DNA of 64,000 bases from the NCBI GenBank assembly GCA_002344005.1, contig DDTD01000046.1, forward strand, positions 66,403 through 130,402, read 5' to 3'. Below, in pieces: positions 20,331 to 37,971 of this stretch. Each line of letters begins with the position of its first letter. Within the stretch, counting starts at the first letter, position 1. The notes under the pieces are model-generated. The model was not told the origin of the DNA. It did not search any database and saw only the letters and a program-made list of their open reading frames with translations. Both the position numbers and the translations under genes were made by a program. This DNA is from Ignavibacteria bacterium UBA2373 (GTDB lineage: Bacteria; Bacteroidota; Ignavibacteria; Kapaibacteriales; UBA961).

Positions 20331-20742
20331 TTAACTTCTATATCTCTCCCCTTTTCTTCTATGCTCGTCGGATTAACTTCTATATCAGTCGTCTCATTTG
20401 CTATGGCTTACTTTTTATCTTCTATGCTCGACGGCTCATTTTTTATACTCGTCGGATTAACTTCTATGCTCGACGGCTCACTTGCTATGGCTTGCTTTTT
20501 ATCTTCTATGCCTGTCGGATTAACTTCTATGCTCGTCGGATTAACTTCTATCTCAGTCTGCTCACTTTCTATGGCTGTCTGCTCATCTTCTATGCTCGTC
20601 GGATGACTTGCTATGGCTGTCGGATTAACTTCTATACCTGTCTGCTCAACTTCTATGCTCGACGGCTCATCGTCTATACTCGTCGGATGACTTACTATAT
20701 GCAGAACTTTATCATCTATGCGCAGAACTTGATCAACTATAC
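20331..20742. repeat. Tandem array of ~20 copies of a 21-bp unit (consensus TTCTATGCTCGTCGGATTAAC)
   Basis: The 21-bp periodicity is visible directly. The array is open as heptad-repeat ORFs on both strands (minus: SIEVNPT; plus: FYARRIN). Confidence 0.9.
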
Positions 20743-20945
20743 GTCCAGATGGTCTCATGCCGCGCCCAGATGGTCTTCTGCCGCGTCCAGATGGTCTCTC
20801 GCCGCGTCCAGATGCTCTCTCGCCGCATCCAGATGGTCTTTTGCCACGTCCAGATGGTCTCTCGCCGCATCCAGATGGTCTTCTGCCACGTCCAGATGGT
20901 CTTTTGCTGCGCCCAGATGGTCTCTCGCCGCATCCAGATGGTCAA
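20743..20945. repeat. Tandem array of ~10 copies of a second 21-bp unit (consensus CCAGATGGTCTCTCGCCGCGT)
   Basis: Abuts the first array directly. Open as PRPDGLL (plus) and DHLDAAR (minus) heptad ORFs. Followed by a Lys/Glu-rich ORF tail to 21179. Confidence 0.9.
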
Positions 20946-21180
20946 TTTTCAGGGAAAGTTGCCAACAATCACCCCCCAGAATCCAAAAATCCACCCCCAG
21001 AAGGTAAAAAACGAGGAAAAGAACAGAACAAGCGAACTAAAGATGAAAACGAGCAAGCGAAAGAAGCAGAAAAACGAGGAAAAGAAGCAGCGCAAACACT
21101 CATGGCAAAAGAGCAGCAATACACAGATATTCAGATGCGTAGAATAGAAGGGAAAAAGAGTAGCGGCGAAGTTTTCTGAT

Positions 21181-21505
21181 TAAATCCCGCAGGGATGGAA
21201 TGTTTATAGAAATAAATACATCCACCCCGTCAGACTGCGTCTGACACCCCTCAATGAGGGGAATTTTTGAAACGCAATAGCGGATAAATCCCGCAGGGAT
21301 GGAATGTTAATAGAAAAGGATGTAAAAAAATATAAAATCCCGCAGGGATGAAAGGTTTATAGAAATAAATACATCCACCCCGTCAGACTGCGTCTGACAC
21401 CGAGCAATGAGAACCCACCCCGTCCTTCGGACACCCCTCCGATGGATGGGATGAAATTCAATAGTTCATAAATCCCAAAGGGATTGAACGTTTATAGAAT
21501 TTGCG
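21181..21505. repeat. Cluster of REP/BIME-like palindromic units (GC-rich mini-hairpins with 3-nt loops) in an AT-rich background
   Basis: Three copies of AAATCCCGCAGGGATGGAATGTTTATAGAA. Two copies of ATCCACCCCGTCAGACTGCGTCTGACACC. CCCCTCAATGAGGGG, GTCCTTCGGAC and AATCCCAAAGGGATT are also present. The same modules recur at 23716-23952. Confidence 0.8.
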
Positions 21506-21530
21506 TTTGATGTGATGGGCGAATTCCCGT

Positions 21531-21563
21531 AAACCTATAAGGTTTTCAAAACCTTATAGGTTT
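21531..21563. promoter_or_regulatory. Perfect 16-bp-arm inverted repeat AAACCTATAAGGTTTT-C-AAAACCTTATAGGTTT (candidate operator site or strong hairpin)
   Basis: Both arms are identical in reverse complement with a 1-nt spacer. The repeat lies ~160 bp upstream of the first toxin cassette. Confidence 0.5.
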
Positions 21564-21719
21564 GGATAAGGAAATCCATCTTTATGACCCGCGCTTGGCG
21601 CAATGACGATTCATTGAGTCAATACTCTCGCATCAGCCAAAAAATGAGTATTTTTGGCAAGGCATCAAAAGCATTGAGCAAAGCCACTCAACCATAAGCG
21701 GGCGAAAAATGTTGATGAG

Positions 21720-22076
21720 ATGGCGGAGGGTAGAAGTTATGTTAATTTAGCTAGTGAATCACGAACAGCTCACATAATTGCAAGTGATGCAACAGGTGGT
21801 GGACATGCATGGTTTGGAAGTTGGAAAAGCTTTTCAAATGGAATTACGGGTCAAAAAACAATGTTTCCGATTACTTGGAGTAAAAATAAAATTATGCATG
21901 CTGCTTCGGATGTTTTAGTAAATAACCCAATTGCAAGGCAAACAGGATCAGCCGGAAGTCTTTTTGAAAGAAGTGGAAGACTATCAAGATTCACAACTTT
22001 TGGGGAATATCAAGGAGTTAAAATAAAAGTAGTTTGGGATAATACAGATATAATTACAGCACTTCCTATAAAATGA
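21720..22076 (+). CDS. Orphan polymorphic-toxin C-terminal domain, bacterial EndoU-like RNase (118 aa, no delivery or N-terminal region)
   Basis: GGGHAW...KTMFPITWSKNKIMHAASDVL...GVKIKVVWDNTDIITALP matches the EndoU_bacteria pattern (GGxH, K..FP..Ws..kI, C-terminal ...iTAyP). An in-frame stop lies 45 nt upstream of the ATG, so the gene is a standalone module. AT-rich. Confidence 0.55.
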   Translation: MAEGRSYVNLASESRTAHIIASDATGGGHAWFGSWKSFSNGITGQKTMFPITWSKNKIMHAASDVLVNNPIARQTGSAGSLFERSGRLSRFTTFGEYQGVKIKVVWDNTDIITALPIK

Positions 22077-22360
22077 ATAAAATGAATAGTAAAAAAGAGA
22101 ATATGATAATTCAATTATTAAAAAATTTACTCTCTAATGCTTTAATGCTTGGAGTTAAAGGGGAATGTAAATTAATAGTTGATGAGTATATCGAATTTAA
22201 TGAATTCGGCTTAGCGTTCGAACACATTGTTTATGAGTTACATGAAAATAATATTCGAATCCCCAATGAACTTTATTTCGACTTTAAAAATGTTGCGGAT
22301 TTGATGGAGCTTAATGAGAATGAATATCAGCCTAGGTTATTAGAATTAATTTTGAAATAA
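22073..22360 (+). CDS. Putative cognate immunity protein (95 aa)
   Basis: Start ATG overlaps the toxin stop (ATGA). Small acidic protein, the typical toxin-immunity arrangement. Confidence 0.5.
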   Translation: MNKMNSKKENMIIQLLKNLLSNALMLGVKGECKLIVDEYIEFNEFGLAFEHIVYELHENNIRIPNELYFDFKNVADLMELNENEYQPRLLELILK

Positions 22361-22473
22361 TCTTATGTAGTTGCCGCTAAGACGATTACGAAACTGTTAA
22401 ACCCTGCTATCAAAATAACTGAGAGCGGTTTAGCACATACATTGGATAGGCATACTTTTAATGGTATTCCAAG

Positions 22474-22698
22474 ATGGCTGATAAGAGTAAGTGTTTTGAT
22501 GCTTCTGAGGTTGAAAGCCTAATTCGGCAGGGAACACAAATGCCAATGAAAAGACAGATTAATGGAAACTTCTCTCGTGTTGTAAATGCAGGAAGAAATA
22601 TTGGCATAGACAGAGCAACAGGGAATCTAACATCAATTTACACAATCATTACTAATGGGCAAGGCAATTTAATTACTGCATTACCAGGTATCCCATAA
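22474..22698 (+). CDS. Second, truncated orphan toxin C-terminal fragment (74 aa), related to the C-terminal half of the first module
   Basis: PMKRQINGNF...TSIYTIITNGQGNLITALPGIP parallels PIARQTGSAG...KIKVVWDNTDIITALPIK of module 1. It lacks the GGGH/K-FP catalytic N-half. A stop lies 15 nt upstream of the ATG. Confidence 0.45.
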   Translation: MADKSKCFDASEVESLIRQGTQMPMKRQINGNFSRVVNAGRNIGIDRATGNLTSIYTIITNGQGNLITALPGIP

Positions 22699-22709
22699 TA
22701 AGAACAAAT

Positions 22710-22994
22710 ATGGCGTGGACAATCATTTTAGAAGATGAAAATAAAGAACCAATAATCACACTAAGCAATGAGCTTGAGATTAAGTTCAATGACGATAAGA
22801 GTAACTTTAAACTACTTTGCTTCTTAGACGCTTATGGCGACACCATTTTTAACCGCTTACAAATGGATGATTTAATCAAGGATTTACAAAATTTAAATTT
22901 GATAGAAGCTAATCCTCTTTTAGATGAGATCAAAATACTTGCAGAACGCTGCAAAAATGGAGAACATACATATTTAGCCTTTTATGGTGACTAA
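22710..22994 (+). CDS. Putative immunity protein of the second cassette (94 aa)
   Basis: Begins 11 nt after toxin fragment 2; small acidic protein with no similarity to immunity protein 1, as expected for polymorphic cassettes. Confidence 0.45.
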   Translation: MAWTIILEDENKEPIITLSNELEIKFNDDKSNFKLLCFLDAYGDTIFNRLQMDDLIKDLQNLNLIEANPLLDEIKILAERCKNGEHTYLAFYGD

Positions 22995-23043
22995 AGACAA
23001 AAGCCCAGAGTAGGTGGCTACCTCCTTCATTCTTTGAAAACTA

Positions 23044-23079
23044 TGAGACATTTCGATTAGCCCCATCCCGATTTCCCGA
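23044..23079. repeat. 36-bp direct repeat TTGAAAACTATGAGACATTTCGATTAGCCCCATCCC (copy 1), followed by imperfect palindrome GCCCCATCCCGATTTCCCGACGGCGAGAAAAAAAGAGGGGC
   Basis: 34/36 identical to 23716-23751. Both copies lie 10-50 nt after the stop of a cassette gene. Confidence 0.8.
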
Positions 23080-23165
23080 CGGCGAGAAAAAAAGAGGGGC
23101 AAAGTTTTGAGGAATGGAACATCAACATCAAACAATGATAGATAACTTTAATATAAGGTGTTTTT

Positions 23166-23705
23166 ATGAAATATGAATTTAGTGACATGGGAATTCCTGT
23201 GAAGTTTACGAAACAGCAAGAAAAATTAATGAAAAAATTTATCATATCTTTTGTAGAAGGCGTATCAGAAATTTGCAAAGAAAAAATAAATCCTTTTATT
23301 AAAAAAAGATACCATTACTATGAAGCTCGCGGATTGTATATAGGAGCGAGTCACTACAGTTATAATTGGCAGATGCTTGATTATTGTGATTTTAGAAACG
23401 CTAATTTAGCTAATGAATATGATTATGTTGGTACTGAAGGTCCATGTTTAGCATTTTCATTTTGTATTCAAGACGATAAAGAACGTTTCTCGAAAATTCC
23501 AATAGTTGCGACAGTGTTTCTTTGTAAGGTTGAGATATTGTTAGATTATAAAGATTTAGAATATTCATTTACGGTAGATTTTAGAGATGAACATAAGCTT
23601 GAAGAAGTTTTCGAAAAAGAGTTGCAAAATATTTTTGAATTTATCAGTGATTCTGTTGATAATATAATCTACGATATAAACAATAATTGGAAAATAGAAG
23701 AGTGA
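23166..23705 (+). CDS. Hypothetical cassette protein (179 aa), possible orphan immunity protein
   Basis: AT-rich ORF flanked exactly by the two 36-bp direct repeats; no recognisable catalytic motif. Confidence 0.4.
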   Translation: MKYEFSDMGIPVKFTKQQEKLMKKFIISFVEGVSEICKEKINPFIKKRYHYYEARGLYIGASHYSYNWQMLDYCDFRNANLANEYDYVGTEGPCLAFSFCIQDDKERFSKIPIVATVFLCKVEILLDYKDLEYSFTVDFRDEHKLEEVFEKELQNIFEFISDSVDNIIYDINNNWKIEE

Positions 23706-23715
23706 GAAGTAAAAG

Positions 23716-23952
23716 TTGAAAACTATGAGGCATTTCGGTTAGCCCCATCCCTCAATGAGAACCCACCCCGTCCTGCGGACACCCCTCCGATGGATGGTAT
23801 GAAATTCATTGCGTCACGGAATCCCGAAGGGATTGAACGTTTATAGAATTTGTGAAAAATCATCCACCCCGTCAGACTGCGTCTGCCACCCCTCAATGAG
23901 GGGAATTTTGAAATTCATTGCGTCATGGAATCGCAAAAGGATGGAATGATAA
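23716..23952. repeat. Second REP/BIME-like hairpin cluster (direct-repeat copy 2 plus the same hairpin modules as 21181-21505)
   Basis: Contains GAGAACCCACCCCGTCCTGCGGACACCCCTCCGATGGATGG, AATCCCGAAGGGATTGAACGTTTATAGAATTTG, ATCCACCCCGTCAGACTGCGTCTGCCACCCCTCAATGAGGGG and GGAATCGCAAAAGGATGGAATG. All match units in the upstream cluster. Confidence 0.8.
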
Positions 23953-23975
23953 TAGAAAAAACAATCCGATAAGTC

Positions 23976-25037
23976 TTACCGTCCGGTGAGTGTTTGTGCC
24001 ACATGGGTTAATAAAGGCACTAAGCGCGGATAATTCATACGTCGTGGTCCGATAATGCCGAGAGAGCCCTTGGCATCGCCGAATTTATAATGCGATACAA
24101 TAACGCTATAATCATTGAGCAATTCCGATCCCATTTCGGAGCCAATCATCACAAAAGGTTTATTATCGCCTGTGTCTTGTCTGTCAAGGATATGAACAAT
24201 TAAATCTTCATTTTCTATGAGTTCTATGACACCTTTTATTCTGTCACGTGACTCAAATTCGGGATATTCGAGCAGATTTTGCGTGCCGGCAATATGCACT
24301 GCCTCATCGGGTGAAGTATAATCAGCAAATAATGTTTCCACCGAGTCAATAAATAATCGCAAATAGGCATTGACTTCGGCGGGTAAACGGTCACGAATAA
24401 TTACCGTAAAATTATCACGGAGAAAAGAAACAGGTCTGCCGCTGATTTTTTCATTGAGCAATCGCGCAATTTCATCTAATGCCTGATAATCAATTTCAAA
24501 ATTAGCTTCGAGAGTGACTGTGCGGACAATATCGGATTGCAATTCGACCACAACGAGTAAGCGCGTGGAGGAAAGAGCAATCAAACGCAGACGTTGTAAT
24601 ATGACATCCGATAAATTGGGTAAAACCACAATGCCAAGATAATGTGATAAAGAGCTGAGTATTTTCGAGGCATCGCGCAAGACATGTTCCCGCGAGGAAT
24701 TCTGAAGATTCTCTTGGACAAATGTGGCAATTTGATTTGTGACATGCTCTGTTTTCATAAGCGAATCCACATAGAGCCGATAGCCCTTATCGGTGGGGAT
24801 ACGCCCTGCGGATGTGTGAGGATGGGCAATAAATCCCATATCTTCCAAATCACTCATAATATTGCGTATGGTGGCGGGACTGAGCTTATAATGCTCTTCC
24901 AGATATTTTGATAAAAAGCGCGAGCCGATTGGTTCAGCCGACAAAATATACATTTGTATAATTGCCCGCAAAATATCCTTTTCCCTTTCGGTTAATTCCC
25001 TGTCACGGTGATGATATGGAAGAAAATCTGCTTTCAT
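23976..25037 (-). CDS. hrcA: Heat-inducible transcriptional repressor HrcA
   Basis: N-terminal winged-helix region ELTEREKDILRAIIQMYILSAEPIGSRFLSK and the HrcA C-terminal domain pattern; 353 aa. Confidence 0.85.
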   Translation of the reverse strand: MKADFLPYHHRDRELTEREKDILRAIIQMYILSAEPIGSRFLSKYLEEHYKLSPATIRNIMSDLEDMGFIAHPHTSAGRIPTDKGYRLYVDSLMKTEHVTNQIATFVQENLQNSSREHVLRDASKILSSLSHYLGIVVLPNLSDVILQRLRLIALSSTRLLVVVELQSDIVRTVTLEANFEIDYQALDEIARLLNEKISGRPVSFLRDNFTVIIRDRLPAEVNAYLRLFIDSVETLFADYTSPDEAVHIAGTQNLLEYPEFESRDRIKGVIELIENEDLIVHILDRQDTGDNKPFVMIGSEMGSELLNDYSVIVSHYKFGDAKGSLGIIGPRRMNYPRLVPLLTHVAQTLTGR

Positions 25038-31473: not shown

Positions 31474-34400
31474 TTATCGCTGTGATTGAAAAATTCTATT
31501 AAATGCACTGGTAGTATAATTTACCGTTGTTTGTGATTTTCGTGCATCGGCAGCATATTTAAACGATCGAGTAAATTGTTGACGACTCTCTTGTTCTTGC
31601 TGCGATTGACCTTGGCGATTATGCGAAGAATATTGTGAATTATGGGACATTTCTTCCTCTTTTTTTCGCACAGTCACTTCCACGCTATCAAGTTGCATGC
31701 CTTGTTTACCAAATTGATCTTTTAATTGAGGAAGCTGTGACTCAATTATCTGTTTCGTTTGCTGTGAATCAACTTGTATTTGTAATTGTGTATCAGAATT
31801 TAAAGTGGAATATCGCACAATGACTGTACCTAACTCTTCAGGTTGCAATACCATACGTACTGTTCCATTTCCTTGTGTTTTTGAGGAAATATATTCATGA
31901 GCCTTATCCGCAAAATGCTGTACCGGTAATAATTCCATTATTTCCATAGATGCAACCTTTTTTATAGTAGGTATGCCGACTTTTTGGACTGGCTGAATAT
32001 GAACATTGTGAGGAATAATGATAGAATCTTGAGAAGGGAAATTACTATTTTCAGTCAAGACAAAATTTTGAGAACTATCTGCTACTCCTAAAGATTGATT
32101 TGAGATTGGTGATAATGTCGTTTGTATTTCATTTTCTACATCAATATTATCACTTTTTGACTTAATACTTGAGTTTTGCTGCAATAGATTGCTTTGATTA
32201 TTAATATTATTCGTTATCTCCCCTCTTGGTACTACTCGCTCAGAAGTAGAGGTAATGAACATATTATTAAAAGTATTGTTTTTTTCTACATTCTGATTCG
32301 CAACTGCATTTTTTAACGAAGAACGATAGTGTGATAATTCTTTTTTGAGTAAACTATTATCTTGGTTTGTTGAATTTTGTTGAGTTAGATTTTCGGACTT
32401 TTTAATTATACCATCATTAAAAACGACTGTTTTTTCATATTCAACAAAAGACAAACCTTTCTTTACTTCAGATTTTTTTTCTACCTCACCGGATATTTGC
32501 TTAGAAACAAAACTTCTTTGTATTTTTTCCGAACCATCGTTTGTTTCCAACGAATTCAAAACGTTCATTTTAACTTCATTGGGAATAGTCTCGACTGATT
32601 TTTCAAGGTGGATCTTTTTTGTATTTCGAGAATCAACTTGAGTGTTCTGTATTATAGCGTCAGATGGAGAAGTAGCACTATCATTATAGCGAATCTTAAA
32701 GACAATATTTTTAACCGGAACACCGACTGACGACGCCTTTTCAATAATGGAATGAAGTGCCATTACCGTATTCGGAATAACTTGATGAGAAGTTTGTATA
32801 TCAGAAGGTGGAGTTACAACAATTGCTGAATTATCATGGGTTTTGTTCTTTAAGACATAGAGTGCACCATCGCTGGTTTGTAATGGCTCATGAACAGTAC
32901 GATCAAAAGCCGAAGTATTAAGTATTTTCACAGCTTTAGAATCAGTATCATCATTGATTGTTAATTCTTCATCATTCTCAATAACTTCCTGTTCATCTAA
33001 GTTCTCCGGAACAATTGATTCATAGGTATTCTTTAGTGTATGAACTAATATTGTATCTGTCGGTTGTATAATTGATTTTGATTTGTCATCATTTTGTTTA
33101 ATAGTATGTTGATTGGTTTTCGATGCAATACTTACATTGTCATCAATTCTACTATCCGTTCTTTCTGTAAAAGGAATATTTGACAAAGTGTTAAGTTGTA
33201 TATTCTCCTTGGTTTTTTTACTGAGATTATGTACACCTTTATTTTTCAAAGATTCCTGTTTAGATAAAGATACTATTTGTGGACTATTGTCATTTTTCAC
33301 CATTACATTGTCATCAACAATACCAGCATCACCATTAAATGTATCATTTTTTGAAACTTGATAAACATTGTTATCTAATTGAGTTGATTTTTTTATCTCA
33401 GTAACAACATTCTCTTTCGAGGACAATGCAACAGTATTAGTTTCTTGACTTTTACCTATAGTAACTCGATCATAAGTAAGCGACTCCGAAGATGTCACGG
33501 TAGCATTTAACTTGTTGTCATTTATAACAGCATTGTCTTCAGCTTCCGTAAGAATCGCATTATTATGAGTATTTGTTGTATTATGAGTAATAGTATTTTT
33601 CGATTTTTGATTAAGTTCTGTCAATAAAGTACTATTACTTTTATCACTGTACAGTAATCCGGCATCAGTTTCTTGTACTTCGTCAACGACAGGTTTAGGC
33701 GGAACCTTATATATTACCTCTGATTTGAAAACTTTATCGTGTTTGACAGTATCTAAGTTATTATCTGAAAATGTATTCTTTTTCTGATTCTGATGTACTT
33801 TCGGTGTATTTCCTACAGCATTCGATTCTCCCTTAGATGCACTACTTTCAACTGAATTAAGATTATTGATAGTTTTTAATAAAATTGCTTCTTCTTCTGG
33901 AGAATATTCAACAGACGGAATATCACGCTTTTTAAATTTCATATTGTTGTCATCTGAATCAAAAACACCATAATCAGATGTATTTTTCACAGTCGAATCA
34001 TCGTTTGAGATAATGTCAGAAATTAATTTTATATCCTGCTTGGAAGTATTTCGAGTACCATTATCAATTGATTCATGAATTATTTGCTCAGTAGATGTAT
34101 TATTTACAACACTATTATAGACCGAGTCTTTTTTAGTCTTATTTACAACAATATTATTGACATTGTTTAAGCCAATATCTTTTAGGCTAATGCTATAAGA
34201 ATCATTATTTTCTAAAGCAGATATCTGCTCAGAATAAACCATATGATTATTTGACTTTTTTTTGTCTGATAAAACATTTAATTCATTTACAGTGCTATTT
34301 TCTTTATAATTTAAGGTATCTGATGAATGTACTTTTTGTTGTCCGTCTATATCATAGTCTTTTAATCTATTACGGGACAGCCTGTCAACAGTATATCCTT

Positions 34401-37400
34401 GCACAGTCTGATTTTTATTCTCTTTTGTATGAAGATCTGAAATATTACTTTCATGCGGTGATCTATACATGATATTATCACTCGAATCAACAGATATTTC
34501 TTCTTGAGAATTGTCTAATATAAGATTTACACGATGTTCTGAACTGTTTTTCTCACCACCGTCTGCTGTCTGACGTGCACCTACTTTATCCGATATAACT
34601 GCGTTTGTAGCAGATTTCACTTTTGCAAATGATAATCTTTCTAATGGTTTTGCACTTTTTTCTTGTATTCCTGATGTTGCTTTGGATTTACTATTACCTT
34701 TCAACAACTCAATTTCTGAACGAACTGTAACAGATTTAGCGGAAAAATCTAATTTCGCCGATGATTCCTCCGAAGAATTATCTATGACAATACTGTGTTC
34801 AGTAAGATTTTTCTTATCACCGTCTGTCTGATGTACACCCAATTTATCAGATGTATCGTTTTCTAATTTTGCAAATAATGATTTCTCTAATGGTTTTGTA
34901 CTTTGTTCTTGTATTCCTGCTACTACTTTGGATTTACTATTACCTTCCAATGACTCAATTTCTGAACGAACAATAACAGATTTAGCGGAAAAATCTAATT
35001 TCGCCGATGATTCCTCCGAAGAATTACCTGTTACAAGAGCAACATTACTTTCTGAAAGATTTTTCTCACCACCATCTGTCTGATGTACACTCAATTTATC
35101 AAATGTATCGTTTTCTGATTTTGTAAATGATGATTTCTCTAATGGTTTTGTACTTTGTTCTTGTATTCGTGCTACTGCTTTGGATTTACTATTACCTTCC
35201 ATTGACTCAATTTCTGAACGAACAATAACAGATTTAGCGGAAAAATCTAATTTCGCCGATAATTCTTCCGAAGAATTATCTGTTACAAGAGCAACATTAT
35301 GTTCTGAAAGATTTTTCTCACCACCGTCTGCTTGATTTACTCCTAAATTATTAGTAAAAACTTCGATTATTTCTTTATCGTCAATAGATTTTGTACTTGA
35401 TGTTTTATGAGTAAACGTATTTGCATACGTTTTAGAGTTATCTCTAGTACTTTCAATAGGAATAGAATTCTCAGTATTGCTTCCGTTTGTGATTTCTTTT
35501 ATTGATTCAGAAAAGAAATGTCCGGATGTTTTTTGAATTATCTTTTCAATACTTCTTTCTGATTCTTCGACATCAATAGTACGATTTGATTGTTTTGATT
35601 TTATTGAAGAAAATTTATCATAATCGCTTTCATTATATTCCGTACCTGTATGTATTTCTACGTTTTCACCTGTTCTTAATACATCTTGAAAAGAAATTTT
35701 GGAGTTTTTTGCATTACCTTGATCTATTGTCTGATCAATAATAGAGTCTTTAGCATATTGCCTAACAGTTTGCTGTTGTTCTAGCGAAATGCTCTTTGCA
35801 ACAAGATTTTTCTCATTATGTTCATTTTGTGATGTTTCACTATATGTTATTTTTTGATTGTTTGCTTGTTGAGATGTATCTGGCATTGACATGACTTTAG
35901 ATTCAGGTCTTTTTTCCTCATTTTGATTATATGATAGATGATTTTCAATCTGAGGATGGTTTATATCCGCGTCAATATCATCATTATAAATATTGTTTTG
36001 CGATGATTTTATTGTTTGAATGATTGAGGTCTTAGTACGGATAGTGCTGTTTTCAATATTTACTGATTTATCATCTTCCTTCAATGTATTCACATACATT
36101 CCTATAGCAGGTGCTTTTTCAGATGATAGTATTTTTGATGTCGTATTTTCAAATTGTGCCACTGTGTTTACTTCATTATTAGTCTTCTTCACTCCGGCAT
36201 TCTTAATTTTTGCTTCTGCATCACTATTATATGCGATGATATTTTCTCTATCGTTCTGACTTTTCAATTCAGACTTATCATGAATAAGCTGTTCATTGAC
36301 TATGTCTGTTTTTTCCAATGTATTTCTCGAATTGCTTGAATTGTTGTATTTATTTGCATTCGATATCGGTTGAAATTTTTCTGTTAATTGTGCATGCTTT
36401 TCATTATTTCTATGAAACTCAAGACTATTTTCTTCAGGAAATAATTTTTCAATGTATTCTTCAATAGCAGCATTCTGCAAACTCGGATCTACCGTTGTTA
36501 TTGATATTGATTTCCTTGTATTTTTATTATCTATATTATCTGTATTGGAATTTTCATCTCCAACAGGCTGATTAATTTTGTTTTGTTGTTCATCACCTAT
36601 ATTATCTAAATTGGAATTTTCATTTCCAACAAGTTGGTTAATCTTGTTTTGTGATATATATGTGTCTTTAGCTCGACTTTTATTTACTACATTTTCTTGC
36701 AATGAATCACTCCCATGATAACTCATTGCTTTATCTTTATACGGGAATGTATTATTCTTTACGGCTTTGTCTGATTCACTATTATTTACATTTTGTTGAG
36801 ACTGCAGGACTCCACCTTTGATAGTATCATTATAAAACCTCATTGGTATATTCTGTTCTTCATTTGTACCATTTTGAAGCGGTAATGATGTATTTGATGC
36901 TTTATTTGACCCTTGAGGTAGATTTAAGTTCTTATTAGCAGTTATACTTTCATTTGTCGAAGTTATTGTATCAGGATTTGATATAGACTCAGCATGATTA
37001 TTTAGATTTACGACTTTAGTATGCTGTGGAAGTACAGTTTTCTCTTGTAAACCATTATTAACCGGTTTATGATATACTGATCCAAATACTTGTTCAAAGC
37101 TTACTTCCGTATTTTGATTGTTGTACTTTACAGTCACTTGATCTTTACTAAAGGAACTCTCCAACGGTTGTGATTTTTGTTGCATGGGTATCCATAAATT
37201 TTGGATTACCATATCAATAATGTGCGGTATTTCCTCCTGTGATGTTGTCGAAATATCAACACGTACTTGAATATCCTCATTATGTGAGGAAAGTAAATTG
37301 ATTTGAACTTTACTTTTATTGTGCACCTTCATTGAATCACTAAAATCTCGTATCATGGATTCAATTTCTGAAGATTTTTCCTTATTTTTCGATTGTGTAT

Positions 37401-37971
37401 TTGATAGAACAATATCTGTGGCACTATCATTTTTTTGTCTGTAAGAATCCGTCTTTTTACTATCAATGTTTATAGCATCAACTAATCCACCTACATTCGA
37501 GTTTTCTTTTGTTTTCTGAATCTCTGTATCGGTAGTGACTTGCTTTGCAAGAGTGGGATTATTGGCATCGAACAGTTGGGATTGTTTTTTCACTTTTTGA
37601 TTATCCAGACCTTGAAACAACGATAGCTCTTCTCCCTCCGAATCGTTTGAGGATTGGGATTTCACCACTATATCATATACATATTCCCATTGGTTATCTA
37701 TATCTGTCGTTGGTTGAAATATTCTAGCTGTATTTGATTGTACAACTTGCTCATTTTGTGTATAAGACGAATTTTCTTTTAATAAAGTAACAGGTACTGT
37801 GATATTGTTACGTGTGCTTTTAGCATCAATCGTTGATTGAAGCAGATTTGAAAAGGCAAATATTGGTGGAGAATAATCACCATCTGGCGATTTAGACACA
37901 GAGGCATCCGTAAGATTTCCGGATGAGTTTGTGAGAAAATGTATGTCTATTTTCATTGTTGCGTCCTGCAA
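31474..37971 (-). CDS. fliK: Giant FliK-like hook-length control protein (2165 aa): FliK C-terminal domain preceded by ~1900 aa of Asn/Ser/Thr/Lys-rich low-complexity sequence with internal tandem repeats
   Basis: The C-terminal ~150 aa (GNGTVRMVLQPEELGTVIVRYS...LQIQVDSQQTKQIIESQLPQLKDQFGKQGMQLDSVEVTV, then a Gln-rich tail) match the FliK/Flg_hook domain. The gene sits between fliJ/MotE-like and flgD, as fliK does in fla operons. Uninterrupted ORF. Confidence 0.65.
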   Translation of the reverse strand: MQDATMKIDIHFLTNSSGNLTDASVSKSPDGDYSPPIFAFSNLLQSTIDAKSTRNNITVPVTLLKENSSYTQNEQVVQSNTARIFQPTTDIDNQWEYVYDIVVKSQSSNDSEGEELSLFQGLDNQKVKKQSQLFDANNPTLAKQVTTDTEIQKTKENSNVGGLVDAINIDSKKTDSYRQKNDSATDIVLSNTQSKNKEKSSEIESMIRDFSDSMKVHNKSKVQINLLSSHNEDIQVRVDISTTSQEEIPHIIDMVIQNLWIPMQQKSQPLESSFSKDQVTVKYNNQNTEVSFEQVFGSVYHKPVNNGLQEKTVLPQHTKVVNLNNHAESISNPDTITSTNESITANKNLNLPQGSNKASNTSLPLQNGTNEEQNIPMRFYNDTIKGGVLQSQQNVNNSESDKAVKNNTFPYKDKAMSYHGSDSLQENVVNKSRAKDTYISQNKINQLVGNENSNLDNIGDEQQNKINQPVGDENSNTDNIDNKNTRKSISITTVDPSLQNAAIEEYIEKLFPEENSLEFHRNNEKHAQLTEKFQPISNANKYNNSSNSRNTLEKTDIVNEQLIHDKSELKSQNDRENIIAYNSDAEAKIKNAGVKKTNNEVNTVAQFENTTSKILSSEKAPAIGMYVNTLKEDDKSVNIENSTIRTKTSIIQTIKSSQNNIYNDDIDADINHPQIENHLSYNQNEEKRPESKVMSMPDTSQQANNQKITYSETSQNEHNEKNLVAKSISLEQQQTVRQYAKDSIIDQTIDQGNAKNSKISFQDVLRTGENVEIHTGTEYNESDYDKFSSIKSKQSNRTIDVEESERSIEKIIQKTSGHFFSESIKEITNGSNTENSIPIESTRDNSKTYANTFTHKTSSTKSIDDKEIIEVFTNNLGVNQADGGEKNLSEHNVALVTDNSSEELSAKLDFSAKSVIVRSEIESMEGNSKSKAVARIQEQSTKPLEKSSFTKSENDTFDKLSVHQTDGGEKNLSESNVALVTGNSSEESSAKLDFSAKSVIVRSEIESLEGNSKSKVVAGIQEQSTKPLEKSLFAKLENDTSDKLGVHQTDGDKKNLTEHSIVIDNSSEESSAKLDFSAKSVTVRSEIELLKGNSKSKATSGIQEKSAKPLERLSFAKVKSATNAVISDKVGARQTADGGEKNSSEHRVNLILDNSQEEISVDSSDNIMYRSPHESNISDLHTKENKNQTVQGYTVDRLSRNRLKDYDIDGQQKVHSSDTLNYKENSTVNELNVLSDKKKSNNHMVYSEQISALENNDSYSISLKDIGLNNVNNIVVNKTKKDSVYNSVVNNTSTEQIIHESIDNGTRNTSKQDIKLISDIISNDDSTVKNTSDYGVFDSDDNNMKFKKRDIPSVEYSPEEEAILLKTINNLNSVESSASKGESNAVGNTPKVHQNQKKNTFSDNNLDTVKHDKVFKSEVIYKVPPKPVVDEVQETDAGLLYSDKSNSTLLTELNQKSKNTITHNTTNTHNNAILTEAEDNAVINDNKLNATVTSSESLTYDRVTIGKSQETNTVALSSKENVVTEIKKSTQLDNNVYQVSKNDTFNGDAGIVDDNVMVKNDNSPQIVSLSKQESLKNKGVHNLSKKTKENIQLNTLSNIPFTERTDSRIDDNVSIASKTNQHTIKQNDDKSKSIIQPTDTILVHTLKNTYESIVPENLDEQEVIENDEELTINDDTDSKAVKILNTSAFDRTVHEPLQTSDGALYVLKNKTHDNSAIVVTPPSDIQTSHQVIPNTVMALHSIIEKASSVGVPVKNIVFKIRYNDSATSPSDAIIQNTQVDSRNTKKIHLEKSVETIPNEVKMNVLNSLETNDGSEKIQRSFVSKQISGEVEKKSEVKKGLSFVEYEKTVVFNDGIIKKSENLTQQNSTNQDNSLLKKELSHYRSSLKNAVANQNVEKNNTFNNMFITSTSERVVPRGEITNNINNQSNLLQQNSSIKSKSDNIDVENEIQTTLSPISNQSLGVADSSQNFVLTENSNFPSQDSIIIPHNVHIQPVQKVGIPTIKKVASMEIMELLPVQHFADKAHEYISSKTQGNGTVRMVLQPEELGTVIVRYSTLNSDTQLQIQVDSQQTKQIIESQLPQLKDQFGKQGMQLDSVEVTVRKKEEEMSHNSQYSSHNRQGQSQQEQESRQQFTRSFKYAADARKSQTTVNYTTSAFNRIFQSQR

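Follow-up and report, generated by a model that had tools for sequence, protein, structure and literature searches.

The stretch of DNA analyzed here, 64,000 nucleotides (nt) from Ignavibacteria bacterium UBA2373 (GenBank assembly GCA_002344005.1, contig DDTD01000046.1, positions 66,403 to 130,402 of the forward strand; hereafter, the window), contains, between the gene for an M20 peptidase and hrcA, an island of arrayed orphan Rhs-type polymorphic-toxin/immunity cassettes (Table 1). The assignment follows from the combination of a bacterial EndoU nuclease domain, an open reading frame (ORF) of the MafI immunity family, a degenerate remnant of an Rhs core (denoted RL) and a second, broken toxin domain accompanied by another ORF. 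The RL remnant (21576-21731) directly precedes the variable C-terminal toxin domain, and the EndoU domain is followed by its cognate immunity gene, with the start of the latter overlapping the stop codon of the former. All homologs of the EndoU ORF (55-93% identity) contain the PF14436 domain, and the database homologs of the RL leader carry the name 'RHS repeat-associated core domain-containing protein'. The window contains no full-length rhs gene; the array is preceded by a tandem-repeat region and, beyond it, by the M20 peptidase gene. The GC content of the ORF block of the array (21720-23705), 32.7%, falls below the values for the whole window (39.8%), hrcA (42.2%) and the M20 peptidase gene (43.7%). 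An earlier note on this DNA, made from the sequence alone, had described an AT-rich cassette array at this location; both the base composition and the strain variability of the array (see below) bear out this description, in which the orphan Rhs-type nature of the cassettes was overlooked.

Cassette 3, which consists of a single ORF of 179 amino acids (ORF179), is flanked by two copies of the 36-mer TTGAAAACTATGAG(A/G)CATTTCG(A/G)TTAGCCCCATCCC, denoted M1, both on the plus strand (23034-23069 and 23716-23751). The two copies agree at 34 of the 36 positions, a match that was found in none of 100 shuffles of the window, and their starts are 682 bp apart. Copy 1 begins 39 nt 3' of the stop of the 94-amino acid ORF of cassette 2 (22710-22994), and copy 2 begins 10 nt 3' of the stop of ORF179 (23166-23705); no third copy is detectable in the window even with 11 mismatches permitted. 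The earlier note had correctly identified this repeat pair and the position of copy 2 but placed copy 1 at 23044-23079, 10 bases off. Its claim that the repeats mark the 3' ends of cassettes holds insofar as M1 does delimit the exchangeable cassettes on their downstream side; however, no M1 copy follows cassette 1 (stop at 22360), so that not every cassette end in this array is marked.

The same element recurs well beyond the window. When one genome per species is scanned for exact 31-mer matches, eight M1 copies are found in six contigs, five of which belong to 'Candidatus Kapaibacterium sp. UWPOB_KAPA1', whereas the sixth is a 3.3 kb contig in a Flavobacteriales bin that also carries ORF179. 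A 26-mer scan of metagenomes (sludge) yields 26 stretches with M1, and altogether there are 37 copies, 33 of them distinct over the interval from -60 to +80 (individual contigs and stretches are denoted below by L numbers). The copies found are 94-100% conserved, a figure that is inflated by the exact-match search. All of them are co-directional with the small-ORF array in which they reside, and in 22 of the 26 scorable contexts, M1 lies 10-105 nt 3' of a co-oriented stop codon. The arrays adjoin ordinary housekeeping genes in about ten distinct chromosomal neighborhoods, and the domains represented in them include Tox-REase-9 with DUF4304, WHH, HNH, a weak match to Imm44 and leucine-rich repeat (LRR) proteins. 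The host is a Kapaibacterium-like bacterium (Bacteroidota) from activated sludge or wastewater, and the M1 family is specific to this lineage. The repeats are not a site pair particular to this locus; they belong, as a single module with about 30 further copies, to a spacer family that is dispersed and specific to the lineage, a point that the earlier note missed. The Flavobacteriales contig, L007 (JAFLBT010000217.1, 3350 bp; filed under the metagenome-assembled genome UWPOB_FLAVO1), encodes an ORF179 that is 96% identical to that in the window and contains two exact matches to M1 along with a third copy at L007 2975, identified by fuzzy search; it is probably a mis-binned Kapaibacterium fragment.

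The aligned copies show that the cassettes are separated by a modular spacer, which is lineage-specific and orientation-locked, with M1 as its best-conserved module. The extended core of M1 includes about 8 additional nt on the left (YYCNTTCTTTGAAAAC...CCCCATCCC) and is usually followed by the hairpin M2 (TTCCCCGACGGGGAAGGCGAAAAAAGCGGGGC); the order of the modules is constant and restricted to one strand, namely M1, M2, (M3/M4/M5)n, M6 and RL. In its genomic context, the spacer extends from the stop of an immunity gene through M1, the M2 hairpin, a variable number of M3, M4 and M5 modules, and the M6 palindrome to RL and the next toxin domain. Within the window, the hairpin modules of the left and right blocks (21179-21505 and 23752-23960, respectively), which belong to the same families, as had been noticed before, occur nowhere else; no modules were seen away from the arrays in the fetched flanking DNA (~415 kb) either. 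The M6 palindrome, which resembles the operator of a dimeric DNA-binding protein, returns at the same relative position in L011-L014, L017, L025, L030, L031, L033 and L036.

The boundaries of the exchangeable units can be gleaned from the comparison of strains. The contigs recovered by exact look-up of the HrcA protein of the window have identical HrcA but contain two different islands: the islands of L002 and L005 match that of the window at 100% identity and the one of L003 (GCA_016713455.1) at 99%, whereas L001 and L004 have 3.7 kb of unrelated DNA in its place, with the breakpoints at window positions 21077 and 23960. Because strains with identical HrcA hold different islands, the gap between the M20 peptidase gene and hrcA is a hotspot that is occupied by either a toxin/immunity array or a defense-like island. 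The locus has at least three alleles. In the third allele, L029, the M20 flank is 96% identical to the window, RL is 89% identical and the segment from M1 onward (M1-M2-ORF179) is 95% identical; between RL and M1, the DNA is unrelated (window 21732-23024 versus L029 10199-11020). The difference is a cassette replacement, bounded by RL on the left and by M1 on the right. The strain-variable part of the island ends at 23959/23960, that is, 16 bp from the hrcA stop codon (23976-23978), at which the earlier note had the island end. No empty-site allele was recovered: in the nearest other species (HrcA 84% identical), hrcA does not lie beside the M20 gene, and the next one shows only 59% identity.

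The cassettes are not only replaced but also duplicated and relocated. ORF179 has five different upstream neighbors in five contexts, and each time, the homology begins at the left edge of M1. The 682-bp unit M1-M2-ORF179 is present as a tandem duplicate in L007, L038 and L039, and the M1-ORF179 unit is found at a second chromosomal locus, on a 4.0 Mb contig, between DcuC and a META/ClpB pair. The order of elements at this second locus is a hairpin block, RL, cassettes, M1-ORF179, M1-ORF179', M1 and M5-M4-M3, with the last junction being that of copy 2 in the window. This junction between copy 2 and M5, which is identical in L039 at another chromosomal locus, shows microhomology (CCCCATCCC versus CCACCCCTC) and looks like the product of illegitimate or homologous joining. 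On the left side, RL aligns with the intact leaders of L007, L029 and L039, and the homology ends at ..GTGGCGGAGGGT, exactly the core/toxin junction (..NVDEVAEG), so that RL is the conserved left boundary of the cassettes. Homology breaks at several places, namely the 5' edge of M1, its 3' edge, and within or after M2, and the M2 polymorphism among contexts is mosaic, as gene conversion predicts. These comparisons show M1 as the right edge and RL as the left edge of an exchangeable unit, between which the cassettes differ, duplicate and relocate.

Table 1. Features of the toxin/immunity island and its left flank (window coordinates)
Feature	Position	Strand	Details
Two 21-bp tandem-repeat blocks (left flank)	20356-20943	.	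Blocks 20356-20698 and 20742-20943; TRF; repeat families D1 and D2
Left hairpin-module block	21179-21505	+	Order M4, M3, M4, M4, M3', M5, M4'; representatives AATCCCGCAGGGATGGAATGTTTATAGAA and CCACCCCGTCAGACTGCGTCTGACACCCCTC
M6	21531-21563	.	16-bp perfect inverted repeat (AAACCTATAAGGTTTT c AAAACCTTATAGGTTT); directly precedes RL
RL, Rhs-core 3' remnant	21576-21731	+	Degenerate, frameshifted; ..HLYDPRLA(R)W.NDDSLSQYSRI..KNEYFWQG..ISGRKNVDEMAEG
Cassette 1 toxin, bacterial EndoU nuclease C-terminal domain	21720-22076	+	118 amino acids; Pfam PF14436, E = 5.4e-10
Cassette 1 immunity gene	22073-22360	+	95 amino acids; NCBIfam NF033691, MafI family immunity protein, 31.8 bits (cutoff 31), E = 9e-8
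Cassette 2 toxin-like C-terminal domain	22361-22698	+	Frameshift, frame 1 to frame 3 near 22470; from translation
Cassette 2 putative immunity gene	22710-22994	+	94 amino acids; assigned by position only
M1 copy 1	23026-23069	+	36-bp core 23034-23069; family consensus reaches ~8 nt further left (TTCATTCT)
Degenerate M2	23070-23115	+	GATTTCCCGACGGCGAGAAAAAAAGAGGGGCAAAGTTTTGAGG; from alignment; mosaic variants in five other contexts
Cassette 3, ORF179	23166-23705	+	179 amino acids; lineage-restricted; inferred orphan immunity gene, by position only
M1 copy 2	23716-23751	+	3' end joined directly to M5 module via TCAATGAGAAC
Right hairpin-module block	23752-23960	+	M5, M4, M3, M4-like; ends 16 bp from hrcA stop codon; allele breakpoint 23960

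The most probable interpretation of these observations, with a probability of about 0.6, is that M1 (together with M2) and RL provide portable homology for cassette exchange, with no dedicated linked recombinase. Under this scheme, M1 with M2 on one side and RL on the other would act as homology arms; general recombination of the RecA type and gene conversion between copies located within one array, in different arrays or on incoming DNA of relatives would result in duplication, deletion and replacement of cassettes, and a dedicated linked recombinase would be unnecessary. The two M1 copies around ORF179 would then correspond to one period of this structure and the opening module of the spacer that follows. 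This interpretation is preferred because M2 is mosaic, the breakpoints lie at several positions, the join at copy 2 shows microhomology and no linked recombinase was found, be it an integrase or another enzyme, either among the window ORFs of at least 150 amino acids that were scanned or annotated or among ten sampled ORFs flanking other arrays. It and the alternatives considered below are not mutually exclusive.

Several considerations weigh against the homology-arm interpretation. Recombination at M1 is inferred from the comparison of genomes, and an identity of 36-45 bp is close to the lower limit for efficient RecA-mediated exchange. The sharp edges and the conservation of M1 would equally fit a site recognized by a protein, and a recombinase encoded in trans, or M1 copies outside the arrays, are possible given that the search covered loci rather than whole genomes. 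Furthermore, the 94-amino acid ORF and ORF179 are taken for immunity genes by position only.

The first alternative, rather unlikely overall, is that M1 is the recognition or crossover site of a dedicated site-specific recombinase that is encoded elsewhere and mediates integron-like or rAID-like capture with an unlinked enzyme, as in the clusters of attC sites lacking integrases (CALINs). Such a site would account for the presence of M1 at the 3' ends of cassettes in about 30 contexts and in a single orientation, for its sharp edges and high conservation, and for the occurrence of the same M1-flanked cassette at two chromosomal loci; M1 also contains a weak dyad, TTGAAA-N11-TTTCGA, and in the rAID-1 clusters of Bacteroidales, repetitive intergenic sequences are paired with a XerD-family recombinase (bioRxiv 10.1101/471110). 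However, no recombinase is encoded by the ORFs checked across the 64 kb or by the ten sampled flanking ORFs, the breakpoints are spread over several positions instead of a single crossover point, M2 is mosaic, and the microhomology join between copy 2 and M5 has an illegitimate or homologous appearance. The more specific version, in which a recombinase encoded elsewhere targets M1 and moves cassettes among about a dozen Kapaibacteriaceae arrays in an integron-like manner but without IntI, the attC structure or a linked XerD, appears unlikely as well.

The structural tests are likewise at odds with an attC-like site. A regular-expression search of both strands in the 21000-24000 region detects no RYYYAAC...GTTRRRY pair 40-150 nt apart (0 observed; 0.6 in shuffles), in accord with the failure of the earlier note to find such cores, and the start of M1, TTGAAAAC, fits neither the R'' nor the R' core. 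Compared with shuffled sequences, the single-stranded DNA of the M1+M2 consensus (both strands) and of copy 1 in the window has no excess folding stability (z = +0.82, +0.08 and -0.09), and RNAalifold, applied to 22 M1 copies, predicts 15 pairs of which none is compensatory, the copies being too similar to carry covariation. M1 was accordingly rejected as an attC or integron site; the comparison of this array with integrons and CALINs drawn at the outset finds no support in core sites, hairpin stability, covarying pairs or a recombinase among the ORFs checked.

Nor is it likely that M1 and the hairpin modules are selfish repeats, similar to repetitive extragenic palindromes and their mosaic clusters (REP/BIME) or to miniature inverted-repeat transposable elements, that build up in the arrays, where the intergenic DNA is non-essential and tolerates them, without any role in cassette turnover. 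M2-M5 are indeed short GC-rich hairpins whose combinations are mosaic and whose copy numbers vary in a BIME-like fashion, and the composition of the spacer varies even upstream of the same cassette (L009 versus L016). Nevertheless, the modules are strictly co-oriented in every locus examined and occur nowhere else in the window or in the ~415 kb of fetched flanks, M1 is not palindromic, no transposase is seen among the scanned ORFs, and M1 and RL bound the differences between alleles.

There is little to recommend the view of M1 as a cis-regulatory element, either a stabilizer or processing site in the 3' untranslated region of the upstream immunity mRNA or a part of the promoter or operator of the next cassette. 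The constant position of M1 directly after stop codons, the TTGAAA that it contains, the operator-like M6 palindrome beside RL and the need of orphan immunity genes for some means of expression speak for such a role. Against it, no sigma-70-like promoter or intrinsic terminator is called at M1/M2 (for terminators, at 23026-23115 or 23716-23751, where an A-run follows the M2 hairpin), the number of promoter-like matches in the region is that expected (10 observed versus 10.6), and there is no Rfam match, covariation or excess folding stability; moreover, regulation alone leaves the allele breakpoints unexplained. In the Rfam 15 search of the window, only two tRNAs reach the gathering threshold, and at E <= 1, the 20900-24050 region produces just a chance CRISPR-DR25 match of 22 bits. 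As for the outcome named in the earlier note as refuting its reading, namely ordinary terminators shared by many unrelated genes, M1 does follow many unrelated small ORFs, but only within arrays, and it is not terminator-like. Next to several M1 copies, the minus strand carries a Shine-Dalgarno-like GGAG and an ATG (MKILKYVLS...); a gene start at this position was rejected, given that indels shift the frame and the ORFs comprise 11-23 codons, so that this strand is considered non-coding.

Finally, it is highly improbable that M1 is fossil Rhs coding sequence, a YYPFG-type repeat upstream of the YRYGxNG motif at which the homology of the orphan to a full-length rhs gene would start: although, in L007, L011, L029 and L036, M1 and M2 are immediately followed by a longer Rhs remnant (..DYRYGYNGMEEED..HLYDPRLA..) and one frame of M1, ENYEAFRL, loosely resembles ENYYPFGL, not one of the 37 copies falls within a long ORF, M1 in L007 does not share the DYRYG frame, in which it has a TAG stop (hand count), M1 is 94-100% conserved compared with 84-89% for the true Rhs remnant, and the window lacks a full-length rhs gene.

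In dense microbial communities, competition at the strain level is believed to be shaped by orphan toxin/immunity arrays, and the gain, loss and movement of their cassettes are understood mainly for arrays located behind a full-length toxin gene or beside a recombinase. Here, the replacement, duplication and relocation of cassettes that emerge from the comparison of strains coincide exactly with the frames set by RL on the left and the 36-45 bp M1 on the right. Together, M1 and RL provide a sequence-defined handle for tracking cassette turnover in time-series sludge metagenomes, and they permit a direct test of whether homologous recombination is sufficient or a new recombinase is involved.

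The cassettes themselves differ in the extent to which they can be characterized. The EndoU domain, with its own ATG, is intact in spite of the frameshifted RL leader, and its translation, if it occurs, would yield a nuclease that is free in the cytoplasm and restrained only by the overlapping MafI-like ORF, in a toxin-antitoxin-like arrangement. The toxin-like domain of cassette 2 ends in ..ITALPGIP, similar to the end of the EndoU ORF (..ITALPIK); after repair of the frameshift, it has no match in Pfam, and the 94-amino acid ORF has none in Pfam or NCBIfam. Upstream of ORF179, there is a short remnant resembling a toxin end (..EEWNINIKQ*). The homology search with ORF179 yields just four protein clusters, all at least 88% identical, and no family match in Pfam or NCBIfam; its single-sequence AlphaFold2 (AF2) model has a mean predicted local distance difference test (pLDDT) score of 57, and Foldseek finds no match in PDB below E = 0.37.

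The alternative island (L001 11079-14770) takes the position of window 21078-23959; it contains the gene for a 527-amino acid methyltransferase/restriction protein, Eco57I-like or type IIG-like (weak matches to Pfam Eco57I and to TIGR02987), a 236-amino acid ORF and the gene for a Trypsin_2-like protein of 315 amino acids. An M5 module (CCACCCCGTCCTTCGGACACCCCTCC...) is found in this allele at L001 14716-14757, within a called 300-amino acid repeat-protein ORF, which suggests that either this ORF is spurious or the modules are able to sit in coding sequence. In the 99% identical island of L003 (JADJPC010000002.1, 11062-14830), the gene calls are fragmented (60 amino acids for EndoU and 50 for toxin 2), consistent with indel errors or additional frameshifts in the assembly. 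The two blocks of 21-bp tandem repeats lie between the M20 peptidase gene and the array, in a hypervariable context outside the cassettes. These blocks, with a period of seven codons, are open in several frames on both strands (PRPDGLS on the plus strand, DHLDAAR / NPTSIEV on the minus strand) and are only 67-80% identical between alleles, compared with 96% for the flanks; comparable 21-bp tandem repeats adjoin M1 arrays elsewhere (L019/L026, 'ATSSHFF'; L022/L028, 'TPRSRFK'; L008). Elsewhere in the window (31474-37971, minus strand), inside a flagellar gene cluster, there is an ORF of 2165 amino acids, unusually long for its family, the sole match of which is Flg_hook (FliK-type hook-length control).

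Among the known systems, the Neisseria maf islands (MafB toxins and MafI immunity proteins) share with this array an EndoU-type toxin, a MafI-family immunity protein and silent alternative cassettes downstream, but here the scaffold is an Rhs core rather than MafB/DUF1020, and the phylum is different. The REP/BIME elements of enterobacteria are likewise short GC-rich hairpins that form variable intergenic mosaics at the 3' ends of genes; however, those are spread genome-wide in alternating orientations, whereas the modules described here are orientation-locked and seen only inside arrays, and M1 is not palindromic. Integrons and CALINs resemble the M1 arrays in having small co-oriented cassettes, a conserved element of ~40-90 nt at the 3' end and strain-variable content, and in CALINs, the integrase is not linked either. 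The cassettes of the arrays are co-oriented and each has a site, apart from cassette 1 in the window. Unlike in integrons and CALINs, there are no R''/R' core sites and no imperfect-palindrome hairpin; M1 is conserved in sequence, in contrast to attC sites, which are conserved mainly in structure; and the cassettes, unlike those of integrons, appear to carry their own leaders.

The rAID-1 clusters (Ross et al., bioRxiv 10.1101/471110) come closer, with a Bacteroidota host, arrays of orphan immunity genes and skewed GC content. Correspondingly, the island contains an array of immunity genes (the MafI-family ORF and the candidates assigned by position), a GC content of 32.7% against 39.8%, and intergenic repeats (M1-M6). 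The rAID-1 clusters are defined by an adjacent conserved XerD-family tyrosine recombinase, which is missing here from the +/-10 kb Pfam annotation, the window scans and the ten flanking ORFs; furthermore, unlike those clusters, this island retains an apparently intact toxin domain (EndoU). Polyimmunity loci (Zhang et al. 2012) are defined by immunity genes that are uninterrupted by toxin genes or cassettes and are separated by short intergenic distances; in this array, toxin domains are interleaved (21720-22076 and 22361-22698) and the spacers reach 100-400 nt.

The orphan Rhs/CDI (contact-dependent growth inhibition) arrays (Zhang et al. 2012, PMC3482391; Poole et al. 2011, PMC3150448; Koskiniemi et al. 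2014, PMC3967940) similarly consist of co-oriented pairs of toxin C-terminal domains and immunity genes, with an Rhs-core remnant before each toxin and with degenerate or frameshifted toxin copies; they, too, are AT-rich and strain-variable in content. In these arrays, cassette exchange by recombination via conserved segments is the accepted route (PMC3482391, PMC3150448, PMC3967940). The arrays described here differ in that the one in the window lacks a full-length rhs gene, normally present at the head of an orphan array, in that they are free-standing between housekeeping genes at many chromosomal loci, and in that the long, polar, modular non-coding spacer (M1-M6) provides a conserved right boundary in addition to the usual homology of the core on the left. 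What is new is the polar modular spacer, which has a sharply bounded right-hand module, and the distribution of free-standing arrays over many loci of one lineage. The finding extends a known principle rather than adding a new one.

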